The position numbers were made by a program, and so were the translations under genes. DNA of 64,000 nucleotides from Methanothermococcus sp. Ax23 (GTDB taxonomy: Archaea; AGJL01; Methanococci; Methanococcales; Methanococcaceae): positions 960,001 to 1,024,000 of the forward strand of contig NZ_CP157522.1 in NCBI RefSeq assembly GCF_049075655.1, in the 5' to 3' direction. Of this stretch, positions 37,859-45,324 are shown in pieces; the first letter of the stretch is position 1, and the number at the start of each line of letters is the position of its first letter. The notes below the pieces were generated by a model. It was given only the letters and a program-made list of their open reading frames with translations. It did no database searches and was not told the origin of the DNA.

Positions 37859-38626
37859 TTAATTATTTGAACCTTCAATTACTCCTTCTTTTAATTCCTT
37901 AGCTTTTTCTTCAAGTTTTTTCACAGTTTCCTCAGAATCGCCATATTCTTCAATTATTTTTACATAGGCACTTCCAACTACAACACCGTCTGCACCGTTT
38001 TTTATAAATTCTTTTGCATGCTCTTTTTTTGATATTCCAAATCCAACATAAACTGGTTTTTTACATAAATTCTTTGTTCTATTAAGGAAATCTAGGGCAA
38101 GATTTGAAACATCATCCCGAGCTCCTGTTGTTCCATATACAGATACAAGATAAACAAACATAGAGCTCGCCTCATCAATCTTCTTCAATCTGTCCTCTGA
38201 GGTATTTGGTGCCGCAAGGAATACCGTTCCAATATCGTATTTTTTACAAACATCTAAATATTCCTCAGCATCTTCAACAGGCAAATCTACAACAATAAGT
38301 CCATTTCCGCCAACTTCTTTAAGTGTTTTAACAAAATTCTCCACACCTTTTGTAAATACCGGGTTGTAGTATGTCATTACAACAACGGGGGTGTCGGAAG
38401 TTTTCCTAAACTCTTTTATTATATCAAAAACCTTTGAAACTTTCATACCATTGTTTAATGCCCTTACATCTGCTTTTTGGATTGTTTCTCCATCTGCCAT
38501 AGGGTCGCTGAATGGAATTCCCAATTCGATTATGTCCGAGTATTTAGAAAGTGCGTTCATAAATTTCAATGTAGCGTCAGGAGATGGGTCTCCTGCAACA
38601 ATAAAGCTCACAAGTTTTTTTTCCAT
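37859..38626 (-). CDS. trpA: tryptophan synthase alpha chain
   Basis: [32 protein letters not shown]. Confidence 0.97.
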
Positions 38627-38667
38627 AAAAACACCTCTTTTTGCATTTTTTAAATATGATGTCGTAA

Positions 38668-39423
38668 TTAATAGGATTTAATGGATATGTCATATTTTGC
38701 ATTAACACTAATGGACTTTAAAATATCTTCTGTTCGTTTTCTTATTGAATCCATATTTATTTTCTTTTTGAGAACTCCAAGGGTTCTTTTTGGAATTAAA
38801 ATTACATTACATCTGTAATGATATATTCCATTTTCATACTCCACTTCAACATTTAATGCATAATCGTGAATCATATCCTGCTCTTTTAGTATGTCAAATA
38901 AATTACATGATAGCTCATCAATGGCAGTTTTTTCCATGGTTCTGAGCTCCAATTTATCAGGTTCAAATGTTTTGCTTATAAGATTATCAATATATTCATC
39001 ATCAGGTAATTTGATGCCAAGTTTTTTTAGGAGCTCATCTCTTTCAGGGTTTCCACCACATCCTTCATCCTCACCTTTGAGATTTTTGGAAGATTTATTC
39101 CCTTCCCCAAATCCGTAGTCAATAACTGGGTAGACAAATATTTTTCCATCCCCGTAATTTCCCGTTTTTGCACTATTGGTTATTGTAGATATTATGTCTT
39201 CCAAATGTTCCTCATCAGTTATTAGCTCCATTTTTGTTTTTGTTTTTTGAACATCCATTACAAATGTATGTCCCCTATATTCCCTAACAACTTTTTCGCC
39301 AACTTCACGCCTTCTGCCTTTAACATCTGAAATAAGAATATCGTCCTTATGTCCAAATTTTGCAAGTGCGGCGATTACATCGGCTGTTTTCTCTGGTCGC
39401 AATACTGCTTCCACCAAATACAC
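38668..39423 (-). CDS. divergent PII (GlnK-like) domain fused to a ~140-aa unknown C-terminal domain
   Basis: [19 protein letters not shown]-loop, [15 protein letters not shown]-loop; GTG start after AGGTGA RBS. Confidence 0.85.
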
Positions 39424-39473
39424 AATATCACCTAATGTAATCAATATACACACTATTATATCTCAATCAAATC

Positions 39474-40643
39474 TTAGAATTTAATATATTTCATAACAGT
39501 TCCTAAATCTTTATCTCCCCTTCCTGAGAGATTTACTATTATAATTTCATCTTTATCCATTTCCTTTGCCATTTTCATACCCTGAGCTACTGCATGAGAT
39601 GATTCAAGAGCAGGTATGATTCCCTCTGTTCTGGACAATTCTAAGAACGCATTTAATGCCTCTTCATCTGTAATTCCTGCATACTGCACCCTTCCTATGT
39701 CCTTCAAATATGCATGCTCAGGACCTACACCGGGGTAATCCAGTCCAGCGGATACGCTGTATGTTTCTTTTATCTGCCCGTCTTCATCCTGTAAGAAGTA
39801 TGAGAACATACCATGTAATATTCCCTTTCTACCTTTCAACAACGAAGCCGCATGTCTTTCTGTATCAAGACCTTCACCAGCAGCCTCAACACCAACAAGT
39901 TGAACTTCTTTGTCATTTTTGAATTCATTGAATATACCTATTGAATTACTACCTCCACCTACGCAGGCAACAATACAGTCAGGAAGTCGCCCTTCTGCTT
40001 CCAATATCTGCTGTTTTGCCTCTCTACCTATTACTGACTGGAAATCCCTAACCATTGAAGGATATGGGTATGGACCAACAACAGAACCTATTAAATAGTG
40101 GGTGTATTCGAATGTTTCCACCCAGTCCCTAAGTGCTTCGTTTATGGCATCCTTTAATGTTTTTGAACCAGATTCAACAGGATGAACTTCTGCACCGTGC
40201 AGTTTCATCTTATAAACATTTAACTTCTGCCTTTCTACATCTATTGCTCCCATGTAGATTTTTGCCTTCATATTGAACAATGCCCCAACCATTGCAGTGG
40301 ATAAACCATGCTCTCCTGCACCAGTTTCAGCAATAATTCTTGTTTTACCCATTTTTTTAGCAAGGAGTGCCTGACCTAAACTGTTGTTTATTTTGTGAGC
40401 TCCGCCTAAAAGTAAATCTTCTCTCTTCAAATATATTTTTGCTCCACCCATCTTCTTTGTAAGGTTTTCAGCGAAGTATAATGGAGTCTCCCTACCTGCG
40501 TATTTTTTTAGGTAGTAGTCGAGCTCCTCCTTGAACTCAGGGTCATCTTTATATTCTTTATATGCTTTTTCGAGCTCCTTTAATGATGGCATAAGCACCT
40601 CAGGAACATATTGACCGCCGTATTCTCCAAATTTAAATTCCAT
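39474..40643 (-). CDS. trpB: tryptophan synthase beta chain
   Basis: [39 protein letters not shown]. Confidence 0.98.
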
Positions 40644-40679
40644 TTTATCACCTAATTTTTTATTATTTGTTAAATTTTG

Positions 40680-41309
40680 TTATACATTTGCCTCATTTAA
40701 ATTTTTAACAAATGATTTTATTAATAATTCATCTTTTTTATTATTCTTTTCAACACCGCTGGATAAATCGACACCATAAGGTTGCACATACTCAACAATT
40801 TCCTTAACATTCTCAGGATTAAGACCTCCTGCAAGAATTATGTTAAAGTTTTTTGCGATTATTTTGCTTACTCTTAAATCGTGTGTAATTCCGCAACCTT
40901 TTCCAGTATCGAGAAGTATATTACAAACATCAGTATATTTTTTTATTTCATTTATTAGATTTTCAGCATCTCTTTCTGGATTTGAACTTAATGAAGGAAC
41001 TTTAAACGCTTTTATTATATTAATGTTATAATTATTTTTCAATTTAACAATCTCATCAACATCCATCTTTGAGTGGATTTGTATATATTTAGTTCCAGTT
41101 TTTTCTATTATCTCCGCCCAGTCGTCATAAGTATTTACTGTGGATACAGCATAAACAGGAATATTTGCAATTTCCATTAATTCTTTTGCTTTTTCAAGTG
41201 GTATTTGTCTTTTGGACTCGCTTTTAACAATAACTCCTGTGGCATTAGCATATCTTTCAACTATTTTTAATTCTTCTTCTGATTTGATGCCGCATATTTT
41301 GATAAACAT
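40680..41309 (-). CDS. trpF: phosphoribosylanthranilate isomerase
   Basis: IKICGI, IQIH, LLDT, LAGGLNPENV, GVDLSSGVE. Confidence 0.95.
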   Translation of the reverse strand: MFIKICGIKSEEELKIVERYANATGVIVKSESKRQIPLEKAKELMEIANIPVYAVSTVNTYDDWAEIIEKTGTKYIQIHSKMDVDEIVKLKNNYNINIIKAFKVPSLSSNPERDAENLINEIKKYTDVCNILLDTGKGCGITHDLRVSKIIAKNFNIILAGGLNPENVKEIVEYVQPYGVDLSSGVEKNNKKDELLIKSFVKNLNEANV

Positions 41310-41319
41310 AATGTTCCCT

Positions 41320-41907
41320 CTATTTATAGCTCAATACCCTATCTACAAAGTTTTTTATTATTTTTAATCCCTCTTTATTTTCCCATTCAGTCAATACGCT
41401 TTCAGGGTGGAATTGAACCCCTTCAATAGGTTTTGTTTTATGCCTAATGCCCATAATTATTTCTTCATCCGTATCAATGGTAGTTGCTGTAATTTCAAAA
41501 TCCTCAGGAACTTCAAGGACTGCAAGAGAATGGTATCTTCCAACCTCCAACGGATTTTTAACATTTTTAAATATGGTTTTTCCGTCGTGTTTTATTATAC
41601 TAGACTTTCCATGAACTGGGGGTATTCTATCAACCTTTCCGCCAAATATATGGGCTATAATTTGATGACCAAGACAAACTCCCAATATTGGAACATCCAT
41701 ATTCATTATAATTTCTGGACAGTTTTCAATATCTCTTTTTTTGTCCGGAGCTCCGGGACCTGGTGATATAATAATCCCATCTGGATTTATTTTTTTAACC
41801 TCTTCAAGAGTTATAGTGTTTGGAACAACCTTTATTTTATCATATATGGAAGCATATTCTGCCAAATTCCATACAAACGAATCCTTATTGTCTATTATTA
41901 AAATCAT
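41320..41907 (-). CDS. trpG: anthranilate synthase component II
   Basis: IDNKDSF, SPGPGAP, GVCLGHQ, RYHSL, QFHPES. Confidence 0.95.
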   Translation of the reverse strand: MILIIDNKDSFVWNLAEYASIYDKIKVVPNTITLEEVKKINPDGIIISPGPGAPDKKRDIENCPEIIMNMDVPILGVCLGHQIIAHIFGGKVDRIPPVHGKSSIIKHDGKTIFKNVKNPLEVGRYHSLAVLEVPEDFEITATTIDTDEEIIMGIRHKTKPIEGVQFHPESVLTEWENKEGLKIIKNFVDRVLSYK

Positions 41908-41937
41908 AATTTCACCTTTGTTGGGAAATTACCTGGA

Positions 41938-43299
41938 TTATTTATCGATATCATGTTCCACCTCTAATGCACGCATAACAGCCGCCATTTTTCTCTCGGT
42001 TTCGATATATTCATTTTCAGGAACAGAATCCGCAACTATTCCAGCTCCTGCTCTTAATCTAATGGTATCGTTGTCTATTTCTGCCATTCTTATGGCTATT
42101 GCAGTATCTGCGTGATTACTCAGTGAGAAATACCCCACAGCACCGCCGTATATTTTTCTTCTGGATTTTTCCAGTTCATCAATTATTTCCATTGCCCTAT
42201 ATTTCGGAGCTCCTGTTAATGTTCCCGCAGGGAATGATGCCTCTATTGCATCGAACATTGTAGCACTGTCTTTTAACTCCCCGATTACCTCACTTTCTAT
42301 GTGCTGAACATGACTGTATCTTATTACCTCAAAGAATCTAGTTAATTCAACAGTTCCAGATTTTGATATCTTTCTTACATCGTTTCTTGCCAAATCAACA
42401 AGCATCATGTGTTCAGCTCTTTCTTTCTCATCATTAAGGAGCTTTTCAGCAAGTTCTTTTGTTTCTTCCTCGGTTTTTCCAACTTTCGTAGTTCCCGCAA
42501 TTGGATTTATTTTTAAAATACTGTTCTCAACTGATGCCATTGTCTCAGGAGACGCCCCCACAACATCCTTTTCAAATTCAAGCAAAAACATATAAGGACT
42601 TGGGTTGAGCTCTCTCAAATTTCGATATATTTTAAATGCTGAATAATCGCTTTTTAATTGATACTCCCTTGATATTACAACTTGGAAGGCATCACCGCTG
42701 TAAATATAGTCCTTTGTTTTTTCCACCATTTCCATAAAATCGTTTTTATTTGCATCGCATCCAACGATATTTGTTCCGCCTTTTTCATCCACTATTTCGG
42801 ATTTTTTAGCTTTTTCAATAACTCTTTCGGCATTTTTCATTTCTTCAAGAGAATTGTTTAATGACAGGTAGTAATATCTGTTTAGTATGTGGTCATAAAC
42901 ATAAACATTGTTGTAATATCCAAATACAGAAGCTTCCTCAATATCTCCGCCGATATAGTTATGTATCGTATCATAGGCGAAGTATCCTAAAAAACCTCCC
43001 GTAAATCTCTCGTTTAATTCAATATTGCTAATTTCTTTTTTGTTTTTTATTTCTGATTCAAATATCTCTTTTAATGCCTTAAATGGATTACTTTCCTTTG
43101 AAACTGTGCTGTTGCCTATTTTTGTATTATTTTTAATATTTACAACAAACTCTGGATTTGAAGATATATATGTATATCTCGCTTTTGAAGGGTGTTTGTC
43201 CCTCGACTCTAAAATAAATGGATATTCCCCTTCCTCTCTTAAAACATTATACAGTTTCAATGGGTCGATATAATCAAACTTCTGCCTAAATAGCTTCAT
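41938..43299 (-). CDS. trpE: anthranilate synthase component I
   Basis: NPSPYMF, GASPE, PIAGT, KERAEHMMLVDLARND, FPAGTLTGAPK. Confidence 0.97.
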   Translation of the reverse strand: MKLFRQKFDYIDPLKLYNVLREEGEYPFILESRDKHPSKARYTYISSNPEFVVNIKNNTKIGNSTVSKESNPFKALKEIFESEIKNKKEISNIELNERFTGGFLGYFAYDTIHNYIGGDIEEASVFGYYNNVYVYDHILNRYYYLSLNNSLEEMKNAERVIEKAKKSEIVDEKGGTNIVGCDANKNDFMEMVEKTKDYIYSGDAFQVVISREYQLKSDYSAFKIYRNLRELNPSPYMFLLEFEKDVVGASPETMASVENSILKINPIAGTTKVGKTEEETKELAEKLLNDEKERAEHMMLVDLARNDVRKISKSGTVELTRFFEVIRYSHVQHIESEVIGELKDSATMFDAIEASFPAGTLTGAPKYRAMEIIDELEKSRRKIYGGAVGYFSLSNHADTAIAIRMAEIDNDTIRLRAGAGIVADSVPENEYIETERKMAAVMRALEVEHDIDK

Positions 43300-43317
43300 A
43301 CTATCCCATTCTATCTT

Positions 43318-44346
43318 TTATTTATAATTTTGAATTTTTGTCAATTTATTTAATACAATTCCATCATCAATGGCATTTTTTGCCATTTCGAGACCTTCCT
43401 TATAATCTGATGCCACATCTGATGCATAAAGGGCCGCAGCAGCATTCAATAGTATAAAGCCCCTATTCTCATTAATTTTTCCTGAAAATATCTCAAAATC
43501 CTTCGGATTTTTACGATTTCCTTCGCTTCGCTCGAAAACCTCGATTATTCTTTTGGCACTTTCATCAGGGCTTCCGCATGGAATAGGTTTTGAAGGGGTT
43601 AATCCAATATCCCTTGGATGTATCTGGTATATTTCATTTTCCTTATTTTCGTTTATTTCGCAAATTGTAGAATAATCATTTGGGTTTAATTCATCCAATC
43701 CATTTCCATAAACTACAAGAGCTCTTTTAACACCAAGGAGTTTTAATGCATCCCCAACTTTTTCAACTAAATCAGGGGAATTTACTCCCATAATCTGATA
43801 ATCAGGGTTTGCAGGGTTTGCAAGTGGTCCCAATATATTGAATATTGTTTTTATCCCCAATTCTTTTCTAACAGGCATTATTTTTTTCAATGCAGGGTGA
43901 TATTTTGGAGCAAACAAAAACACAAAGTTTGTTTCATCAATCATTTTTTTAGCTTCCTCTGGTGTGGAATCAATTTTAATGTTCAATGCTTCCAAAACAT
44001 TTGCAGAACCGCTTTTTGAAGTAATGGATACATTTCCGTGTTTTGCAACCTTTTTAAAACATGATAATACGATAGATACAGCGGTGGAAACATTTATTGT
44101 GGAAAAACCATCCCCTCCTGTTCCGCAGGTATCACAAACACTTCCTAAATCTACTTTAACGGCATTATCTCTCATCGCCTTCGCAAAACCGGCAATTTCT
44201 TCGGAAGTAAAGCCCTTAGTTTGAAGTGCTGCAAGATATGCCCCTATTCTTATTTCACTTTCATTTAAAAGGTTATTGAATAAATTATATGCCTCTTCAT
44301 AAGTTAAATCCTTTCTATCCACTATTTTATTTAATAAGTCGTTCAT
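43318..44346 (-). CDS. trpD: anthranilate phosphoribosyltransferase (with 16-aa repeat-derived insertion)
   Basis: DTCGTGGDG, AKHGN.S.TSKSGSA, TIFNILGPL. Confidence 0.96.
   Translation of the reverse strand: MNDLLNKIVDRKDLTYEEAYNLFNNLLNESEIRIGAYLAALQTKGFTSEEIAGFAKAMRDNAVKVDLGSVCDTCGTGGDGFSTINVSTAVSIVLSCFKKVAKHGNVSITSKSGSANVLEALNIKIDSTPEEAKKMIDETNFVFLFAPKYHPALKKIMPVRKELGIKTIFNILGPLANPANPDYQIMGVNSPDLVEKVGDALKLLGVKRALVVYGNGLDELNPNDYSTICEINENKENEIYQIHPRDIGLTPSKPIPCGSPDESAKRIIEVFERSEGNRKNPKDFEIFSGKINENRGFILLNAAAALYASDVASDYKEGLEMAKNAIDDGIVLNKLTKIQNYK
43486..43533 (+). repeat. double-hairpin short repeat inserted in frame in trpD
   Basis: AAAATCC-TTC-GGATTTT then TTTC-CTTCGCTTCGCTC-GAAA; encodes ERSEGNRKNPKDFEIF. 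Confidence 0.8.
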
Positions 44347-45074
44347 AATTTCGCCTCCACAAATGATTTAACAAATTCCTCCATATTTTTTGCCTTCATA
44401 AAGCTTGTTCCTATAAGTGCCGCATCGGCATACTTTAAAGCTATTCTTAAATCATCTATCGAGCCAATACCGCTTTCACTAACAAATACTACATCCTTTG
44501 GAATTAAATTGGATAGTTGTTCCGTAAGGGATACTGTTCCATCGTCGAGCTCTAACTTTGTAATATCTCTATTATTAACACCAATCATTGTGGTGTTTGT
44601 ATCCTTTGCTATGTCAATTTCCTCCTTATTATGAACTTCCACAAGAGTATCCAATCCATGTTCAAGGGCATAATCAACGAATTCGGCTGTTTCATCCTTT
44701 AACATTCTCGCTATTATTAATATCGCCCCTCCCTCTGCTTCTGCTGTTTTTTCAATCTCATCTTTTGTGGTGATGAAATCCTTTCTTAAAACCGGGAGCT
44801 CGGTTGATGCACATATTTTTTTGAACATGTCAAAGTTCCCGTTAAAGTATTTTTTAGCGGTAATGTAGGATATTCCCGCAGCTCCTGCATTTTCATATAT
44901 TCTAAGAATATCTATTTCATCCCTTCCTTTAAGCATATCGCCATATTTTGGAGAATGGACTTTTATTTCTGCTATTATTGGATTTCTGCACTTGTGCGGA
45001 AATTCACAAATCTCTGATTTGGGTAAATTTTTGCTATTATTTTTTGTGTTTATTATTGAATTGACCATCTTCAT
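44343..45074 (-). CDS. trpC: indole-3-glycerol phosphate synthase (with 15-aa repeat-derived insertion)
   Basis: IIAEIK..SP, PVLRKDF, LVEVH, IGVNNRD, SESGI. Confidence 0.95.
   Translation of the reverse strand: MKMVNSIINTKNNSKNLPKSEICEFPHKCRNPIIAEIKVHSPKYGDMLKGRDEIDILRIYENAGAAGISYITAKKYFNGNFDMFKKICASTELPVLRKDFITTKDEIEKTAEAEGGAILIIARMLKDETAEFVDYALEHGLDTLVEVHNKEEIDIAKDTNTTMIGVNNRDITKLELDDGTVSLTEQLSNLIPKDVVFVSESGIGSIDDLRIALKYADAALIGTSFMKAKNMEEFVKSFVEAKL
44982..45026 (-). repeat. double-hairpin insertion in frame in trpC
   Basis: CAAATC-AGA-GATTTG then ATTTCCGCAC-AA-GTGCAGAAAT; encodes LPKSEICEFPHKCRN. Confidence 0.6.
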
Positions 45075-45225: not shown

Positions 45226-45324
45226 TCACCACCATCTCCAAACAACATTGGAGTGGTTGCTAAAAAAAGAATCCATTTTATATATGTTCGAGATTTTCGT
45301 TCTCTTTATGTTGGATAATTCCAT
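45226..45324 (-). CDS. putative trp operon leader peptide (32 aa, MELSNIKRTKISNIYKMDSFFSNHSNVVWRWW)
   Basis: AGGTG RBS 5 nt before ATG; three Trp codons in the last four; T6 run right after TGA; 151 nt upstream of trpC; below the ORF-track length cutoff. Confidence 0.8.
   Translation of the reverse strand: MELSNIKRTKISNIYKMDSFFSNHSNVVWRWW

Follow-up and report, generated by a model that had tools for sequence, protein, structure and literature searches.

We analysed a window of 64,000 nucleotides (nt) from the archaeon Methanothermococcus sp. Ax23 (genome G000; contig NZ_CP157522.1, positions 960,001 to 1,024,000 of the forward strand), in which the open reading frame (ORF) list and the translation place a gene of 251 codons plus stop, here called gene X, on the minus strand between trpB and trpA of the tryptophan operon (38668..39423). 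X is a genuine accessory gene restricted to certain lineages; its product is a chimeric PII-family protein whose domain partner and operon context had not been described before. Sequence comparison shows that its PII domain is joined to the C-terminal module of DUF2226 proteins, and that this PII-DUF2226C fusion is confined to Methanococcales. As to function, we estimate a probability of about 40% that X, whose effector site is altered, serves as a dispensable PII-type modulator of an enzyme encoded on the same mRNA. This reading rests on three points: PII-family genes usually lie beside their targets (glnK-amtB, nifI-nifHDK, sbtB-sbtA), the ligand motifs of the PII domain are kept only in the operon copies of X, and a gene of the aromatic pathway, aroD, adjoins X in another lineage.

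The N-terminal half of X is a true PII domain. The Pfam P-II profile (PF00543) matches residues 13-112 with 46.8 bits and an E-value of 4.1e-12, at a cut-off of 25; residue numbers here refer to a 261-residue frame explained below. The closest solved structures found for this half by phmmer against the PDB are GlnK1 of M. jannaschii and GlnK1 and GlnK2 of M. thermolithotrophicus (E 1.5e-16 to 4.9e-16, ~43% identity), and the GlnK proteins of Methanococcales (PDB 2j9c-e, 7p4v, 7p4y, 7p50 and 7p52) are the best match in both sequence and fold, covering residues 13-110. An AlphaFold2 (AF2) model of X built on a 46-row alignment reached a mean predicted local distance difference test score (pLDDT) of 84, with values of ~80-94 in the PII part, and contains the ferredoxin-like beta-alpha-beta-beta-alpha-beta core (strands 11-18, 39-45, 71-80 and 104-110; helices 20-31 and 81-95) together with a T-loop hairpin of strands 54-59 and 62-66. 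Foldseek searches with the whole model returned PII proteins only, with GlnK1 at E 3e-10 and template modelling (TM) scores by target of 0.65-0.73. The NCBIfam GlnB/GlnK equivalog models NF008111 and NF007946 gave 48 and 44 bits, below their cut-offs of 202 and 181. X is the fifth PII-family frame of its own genome, sharing 44-45% identity with the pair of PII genes at 1.313 Mb and 34% with the pair at 1.042 Mb.

Effector residues were mapped by aligning X to M. jannaschii GlnK1 and transferring the ligand contacts of Methanococcales GlnK listed in PMC8395244. According to that paper, ATP is contacted by T29', I38, Q39, G87, K90, V64', R101' and R103', while F92 stacks on the adenine; 2-oxoglutarate is held by Q39 and G41 backbone contacts and by salt bridges to R9 and K58; the Q39 side chain closes the Mg coordination; and the C-terminus beside the cleft is stressed. 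In X, R9 is kept as R19, G35 as G46, G41 as G52, K58 as K72, G87-D88-G89-K90 as G101-D102-G103-K104 and F92 as F106, so that the B-loop signature T97-G-N-Y-G-D-G-K-I-F106 is intact. Changed positions are T29 (L40), G37 (R48), V38 (R49), Q39 (E50) and Y51 (F64), whereas R101 and R103 are missing, their positions reading F115 and E117 when the count is continued past the point where the alignment stops. The base of the T-loop reads G-R-R-R-E in X and G-R-G-V-Q in GlnK1, and the T-loop of X is two residues longer. Where a PII-type C-terminus would lie beside the cleft, the chain of X runs on into a linker and the C-module; the linker (residues 113-135, ~25 residues) takes the place of the PII C-loop, is variable in the family alignment, and has pLDDT values <50 at 113-123 and 127-130, from which it is predicted to be flexible or disordered. 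Taken together, X shares with GlnK1 and GlnK2 the core, the T-loop hairpin, the B-loop and the equivalents of R9, K58 and F92, but it has R-R-E for G-V-Q, a longer T-loop, neither R101 nor R103, no PII-type C-terminus and 150 additional residues of linker and extra domain, and its gene does not lie beside amt.

Comparison within the family refines this picture. We searched 40 Methanococcales genomes, belonging to the family of G000 and to a sister family. Among 10 X sequences (32-70% identity to X), 32 columns are invariant, including Y59-R60-G61, K74 and E76, and the B-loop is retained in all five sequences of the own-family lineage and in none of the five from the sister family. The equivalent of Q39 is E in X and N in the lineage of G026, a distant congener with X between trpB and trpA; the T-loop base of that lineage reads G-Q-R-Q-N (R-Q-N at 48-50), which leaves R48 as the only T-loop-base arginine of X kept there. 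From these residues, nucleotide binding by X appears plausible and the canonical Mg-ATP/2-oxoglutarate switch does not; the T-loop-base arginines might, speculatively, replace the lost C-loop arginines. Two side observations concern this domain. In DNA runs X9 and X10, further contigs match the B-loop stretch 39133-39166 (33 nt, 3 differences), presumably through the equivalent conserved stretch in other PII genes and not through a rearrangement, and one protein of the representative library (P0009, 362 amino acids, aa) carries three tandem P-II domains in a single chain.

The C-terminal half of X belongs to a different family. Pfam DUF2226 (PF09987) matches it with 39.2 bits at a cut-off of 22, covering only profile positions 143-232 of 252. 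When the X family was aligned to 25 canonical DUF2226 proteins by hhalign, only the C-terminal 125 columns matched (probability 99.6%, E 6e-25; residues 121-249 of the 251-aa form against 295-418 of a 420-aa paralogue), and the PII half found no match within DUF2226 in this comparison. X thus shares with the canonical proteins the C-terminal ~125 residues, a 12-residue motif and the final alpha-beta-beta-alpha-beta unit, whereas their two N-terminal domains are absent and a GlnK-like domain stands in their place. Since the match is restricted to the C-terminus, X is a genuine domain chimera of PII and the DUF2226 C-terminal module. An AF2 model of the C-module alone (44-row alignment, pLDDT 81) shows three helices followed by alpha-beta-beta-alpha-beta, and the C-domain (136-260) is confident in the model of whole X as well. 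Its most conserved features are the 12-residue motif, common to all DUF2226 proteins, and a basic loop K-x-x-x-G-x-x-K-K-x-I (K222...G226..K229-K230). A word-indexed search of proteins that took only the C-domain as query proved insensitive and retrieved just the three clusters of X itself, and the DUF2226 relatives were taken from genome searches.

Structure searches with the C-module gave mixed results. Foldseek against the PDB returned nothing at E ≤ 0.001, the best match being OsmC at 3.7e-3. VIA-align over 48,161 chains ranked OsmC-like proteins, the ring-building motif of PrgK/EscJ and C-terminal domains of cation-diffusion facilitators at Z 9.4-8.2, a top value barely above the 7-8 typical of the best Z for models without a true match; lower matches were 3gku, a probable RNA-binding protein (Z 8.0), Era (7.3), BolA (~7) and RbfA (6.8). 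The Atlas structure search yielded the same mixed generic set. Judged from the model, the module would be a small fold of a common kind that often serves in oligomerisation or docking, and we draw no function from the fold matches. The weak likeness to KH-type and ribosome-associated modules (Era, RbfA, 3gku), the conserved basic loop and the Trp-rich leader ORF described below, which makes RNA-level control of the operon plausible, could suggest that X is a ligand-gated RNA-binding regulator, its C-module binding trp mRNA and its PII domain acting as the gate, in the manner of an attenuation protein. We consider this very improbable, as the Z values fall within the range of models without a true match, equal or better scores go to OsmC-like proteins, C-terminal domains of cation-diffusion facilitators and ring motifs of secretion systems, no RNA target came to light, although no search was aimed at one, and canonical DUF2226 proteins occur in a different context.

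The trp operon is complete, with the order trpC-D-E-G-F-B-X-A on the minus strand (37859-45074), and all seven trp genes exceed their NCBIfam equivalog cut-offs (for trpG, a subfamily cut-off). The spacers on the two sides of X are 50 nt (trpB-X, counted to the start at 39423) and 41 nt (X-trpA), comparable to the ≤36 nt of the remaining operon spacers; no terminator-like hairpin was found, and trpA has a GAGGTG of its own ahead of its ATG. A scan for bacterial-type promoters gave 10 matches at 9.1 expected, a count that carries no information for an archaeon. The frame of X can be extended to a GTG at 39453 (38668..39453, minus strand; 261 aa), the form that underlies our residue numbering. 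The GTG at 39423 is more likely to be the start, since the Shine-Dalgarno-like AGGTGAT (39433-39427), which we take to be complementary to the 3' end of 16S rRNA, lies 3 nt upstream of it, the metagenomic homologue P0003 starts at the equivalent residue, the G026 orthologue has an ATG at the equivalent position, and the ESM Atlas record starts at residue 11. Coordinates are collected in Table 1.

Table 1. Gene X, its parts and the surrounding trp genes in the window
Feature	Position	Strand	Basis or remark
trpC	44343-45074	-	NCBIfam equivalog
trpD	43318-44346	-	NCBIfam equivalog
trpE	41938-43299	-	NCBIfam equivalog
trpG	41320-41907	-	NCBIfam subfamily
trpF	40680-41309	-	NCBIfam equivalog
trpB	39474-40643	-	TIGR00263, 653 bits; upstream neighbour of X
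Gene X	38668..39423	-	PII-DUF2226C fusion, 251 aa
Shine-Dalgarno-like AGGTGAT	39427..39433	-	read from sequence
PII domain	39118..39417	-	residues 13-112, Pfam PF00543
T-loop region	39256..39318	-	residues 46-66, alignment to 2j9d/7p52
B-loop (nucleotide-binding signature)	39133..39165	-	residues 97-107, translation and GlnK1 alignment
Linker	39049..39117	-	residues 113-135, low pLDDT
DUF2226-type C-terminal module	38671..39048	-	residues 136-261, Pfam PF09987, hhalign, AF2
trpA	37859-38626	-	TIGR00262, 307 bits; downstream neighbour of X

An earlier, sequence-only reading of this stretch had described much of this. Its co-oriented gene of ~251 aa splitting trpB from trpA is confirmed by the ORF list and the TIGR00263 and TIGR00262 matches, and all protein motifs it quoted are found in the translation of X. 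Its account of the effector site (an intact B-loop, G-x-Q replaced by RRE, the C-loop RxR gone) proved right in every item of the GlnK1 alignment; the likeness of the tail to DUF2226 proteins was correct according to hhalign; and its general view, in which a PII domain has changed its effector site and gained a DUF2226-type tail, is backed by Pfam, the GlnK1 alignment and hhalign alike.

Beyond the genome set, the two-domain architecture is rare. A clustered collection of 5.8 billion proteins holds only four two-domain clusters (P0001-P0004, at 100, 70, 69 and 52% identity), and HMMER over 1.84 billion representatives gave 1353 matches at E ≤ 0.001, where two of the best 150 span both domains (P0007 and P0008) and the others among those 150 are single-domain PII or DUF2226 proteins. 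A defence origin found no match in PADLOC, and a check for phage origin in PHROGs gave one family of unknown function that matches the PII domain only.

Several observations weigh against a role for X in tryptophan synthesis. The distribution is patchy: X is intact and full-length in 7 of the 40 Methanococcales genomes (G000 and G026 in the own family; G001, G007, G008, G015 and G017 in the sister family), while two genomes carry pseudogenes, full-length with 5 stops in G005 and fragmented in G033. Within the own family, X is absent from 19 of the 22 assessable trpB-trpA junctions. The decayed copy in G033 (L028, C59, ~1065-1470) has 3-nt and 2-nt deletions and an internal deletion of ~470 bp, although this assembly consists of 80 contigs and a mis-assembly is possible. 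None of the six sister-family copies belongs to the trp operon or lies near trpB or trpA, and their proteins have lost the equivalents of R9, K58 and the B-loop. At the RNA level, none of the available contigs, all of them short, extends 31 nt to each side of either junction of X, and the structure searches gave no informative relative of the C-module. Finally, the adjacency of X and aroD, a second aromatic-pathway link and as such a hint, comes from one lineage and was spotted post hoc. For the sequence-only reading, which had tied X to Trp enzymes, the embedding in the operon stands, with its spacers and the lack of a hairpin, and the proposed Trp role is weakened by the X-free junctions and the G033 pseudogene. 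Orthologues in unrelated contexts, which it had named as evidence against itself, are found in part, in that the sister-family copies all lie elsewhere.

The history of the junction can be followed in the own family, where trpA is present in all 23 genomes and the junction is assessable in 22, the contig of G031 starting at trpA. X is intact in G000 and G026 and a remnant in G033; in the 19 X-free genomes, trpB and trpA are ~10-145 nt apart. G033 is the closest relative of G000 (TrpA 98% identical), with intact trpB and trpA and flanks near-identical to the window, and its decayed X offers a natural knock-out for comparison. The copy in G005 (L011 1501-2247), 68% identical to the protein of a neighbour species but broken by 5 stop codons, is a second, independent pseudogene. 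Since the tryptophan synthase genes are intact where X has been lost, X is plainly not needed for tryptophan synthase and is dispensable.

Between G000 and G026, X is 52% identical, compared with 78% for TrpA and 87% for TrpB, which indicates that X evolves fast while its frame and motifs are still kept. A TrpA+TrpB tree (16 genomes, 648 columns, quick IQ-TREE run, midpoint root, four genomes of another genus as outgroup; seven family genomes with incomplete genes or start codons not found were left out) places G026 as the first branch of the genus clade and groups G000 with G033 and G027, with a Shimodaira-Hasegawa-like approximate likelihood ratio (SH-aLRT) support of 97. Given this early branch, one old insertion followed by losses would be the economical history. 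It requires no fewer than three clean losses (in G027, in G037 and in a clade of seven genomes) on top of the decay now under way in G033; otherwise X must have entered the same trpB-trpA spot twice, independently. The site is used in two deeply diverged lineages and the gene has been lost repeatedly elsewhere; in at least two lineages X has long persisted inside the operon. In the same tree G037, assigned to genus g3, falls inside the g1 clade, with a TrpB 95% identical to that of the window, reflecting either a shallow genus split or operon exchange.

The decayed copies in G033 and G005 and the many relatives without X raise the question of whether X in G000 is itself a functionless relic on its way to loss, with a frame that is open but useless. 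We regard this as improbable: the 251-codon frame is intact in an AT-rich genome and has its own Shine-Dalgarno-like sequence, structural and ligand motifs are conserved over lineages (69-70% identity for P0002 and P0003, 50-52% for P0004 and G026), and the AF2 models are confident for both domains.

In the sister family, X has a different neighbourhood. All six copies adjoin a divergent gene for an HxlR-type regulator and a gene for a MinD/ParA-type ATPase. On the other side, G001, G005, G007 and G015 have a convergent Nif3-family gene and a methyltransferase gene, whereas G008 and G017 have a co-oriented aroD ~137 nt downstream of X, followed by a TatD-type gene; in the former four genomes aroD lies hundreds of kb from X. 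A metagenome scan found a full-length X locus with the aroD arrangement on contig L081, apparently from the same lineage as G008 and G017 and so not independent. The sister-family proteins stay under the Pfam P-II cut-off (best L010, 19.9 bits), and with their ligand motifs lost only the operon-resident copies still look ligand-competent. In G002 and G004, sister-family genomes that lack X, no X remnant was found by the HxlR gene within ~1.5 kb at E ≤ 0.01.

Canonical DUF2226 genes (~370-500 aa) occur in 36 of the 40 genomes at E ≤ 0.001, one or two per genome. In both Methanococcales families, one paralogue group forms a conserved trio of a LarB-like gene (AIR-carboxylase fold), DUF2226 and a gene for a 179-aa protein that has no family match: 18 of 30 DUF2226 loci (L051-L080) have all three genes and 4 more have DUF2226 with the 179-aa gene. 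In G000 the trio lies at C1 ~236.9-239.9 kb (L026 430-3349), and X lies outside this neighbourhood. A second DUF2226 paralogue group has no trio neighbours. No paper naming DUF2226 was found by full-text literature search.

These contexts allow a different account of X, in which it serves a DUF2226-family process through its C-module, has no tie to tryptophan and obtains only its transcription from the trp operon; it might, for instance, dock on a partner of the canonical proteins, such as the 179-aa protein. The clear homology of the C-module to the canonical C-terminus, the conserved trio in both families, the non-trp contexts of the sister-family orthologues and the survival of trpB and trpA after loss or pseudogenisation of X all agree with it. 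Set against this are the occupation of one operon site in lineages in which X is 52% identical, the survival of the PII ligand motifs in operon-resident copies and in no others, the second aromatic-pathway neighbour aroD in another lineage, and the general habit of PII-family genes to adjoin their targets. Frequent loss and unrelated contexts fit this account roughly as well as they fit a modulator of a same-mRNA enzyme, and we consider it nearly as probable.

The locus is represented in two hydrothermal-vent metatranscriptome runs of one study, which contain contigs ≥99% identical to parts of trpB, X and trpA. X itself is covered by stretches at 38740-38978, 38947-39083, 39085-39172, 39093-39216 and 39303-39472, the last including the start of X and the entire trpB-X spacer. 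X sequence is therefore present in RNA libraries, which can carry DNA as well. Prediction of a TrpB + TrpA + X complex gave a score of 0.00 in two runs, with the mark at 0.32, an outcome that speaks neither for nor against such a complex. Literature searches found no paper on a gene for a PII-like protein with tryptophan synthase in archaea and, by title or abstract, nothing on X among work on the Methanococcus trp operon; the main text of a M. thermolithotrophicus transcriptome paper makes no mention of tryptophan or trpB.

Upstream of the operon, in the 377-nt gap before trpC, lies a Trp-rich ORF of 32 codons (45226-45324, minus strand) that ends in W-R-W-W and is preceded by AAGGTG. It is a candidate Trp-rich leader peptide for these genes; in an archaeon, such a leader would be unusual. 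The leader peptide of the sequence-only reading thus has a counterpart in the DNA, while the two-layer trp control that it built on this peptide and X stays a conjecture.

Known PII systems offer partial precedents. NifI1 and NifI2 are a PII pair embedded among the structural genes of the methanococcal nif operon, whose enzyme they regulate by direct binding, as described in PMC9765008; like X, they represent archaeal PII-family genes amid the structural genes of an operon. The NifI proteins, however, are single-domain, whereas X has two domains and is closer to the GlnK-type paralogues (44-45%) than to the other pair of its genome (34%). SbtB, with its R-loop, and plant and algal PII, with their Q-loop, are encoded beside their targets and resemble X in carrying a C-terminal addition to the PII core, one that alters their sensing (for the Q-loop, see PMC8395244). 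In the case of SbtB/SbtA, the regulator is co-expressed with the protein that it regulates. These additions are short loops, in contrast to the folded, non-homologous domain on a long linker in X, and the targets of SbtB and of plant and algal PII are transporters or NAGK, not Trp enzymes.

X consists of a GlnK-derived sensor domain tied through a flexible linker of ~25 residues to the DUF2226 C-module. If it is a modulator of a same-mRNA enzyme, the PII core would trimerise and still bind an adenine nucleotide, reading a signal that may be different from, or simpler than, that of GlnK, and the T-loop hairpin, the three tethered C-modules, or both, would touch the partner. Because PII genes usually neighbour their targets, the partner would most likely be an enzyme encoded by the trp mRNA, with tryptophan synthase and anthranilate synthase, which uses glutamine, as the two candidates, and the effect would be modulatory and not essential. 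A more specific form of this proposal, a trimeric accessory subunit gated by nucleotide or metabolite that uses its T-loop and tethered DUF2226-type modules to dock on tryptophan or anthranilate synthase and tunes Trp synthesis to energy or nitrogen status, seems to us unlikely. Were it to hold, X would be the first PII-family protein to regulate the biosynthesis of aromatic amino acids, and the DUF2226 C-module would gain its first assigned role, in protein docking.

Few metabolic sensors are as widespread as the PII proteins, whose known targets lie mainly in nitrogen and carbon assimilation. The narrow distribution and evident dispensability of X limit its general importance. Its close relatives provide a built-in natural comparison of intact gene, pseudogene and clean absence. 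If the proposal is true, X offers a first way into the DUF2226 family, which is still uncharacterised, and if it acts on Trp enzymes, PII signalling would reach into the synthesis of aromatic amino acids.

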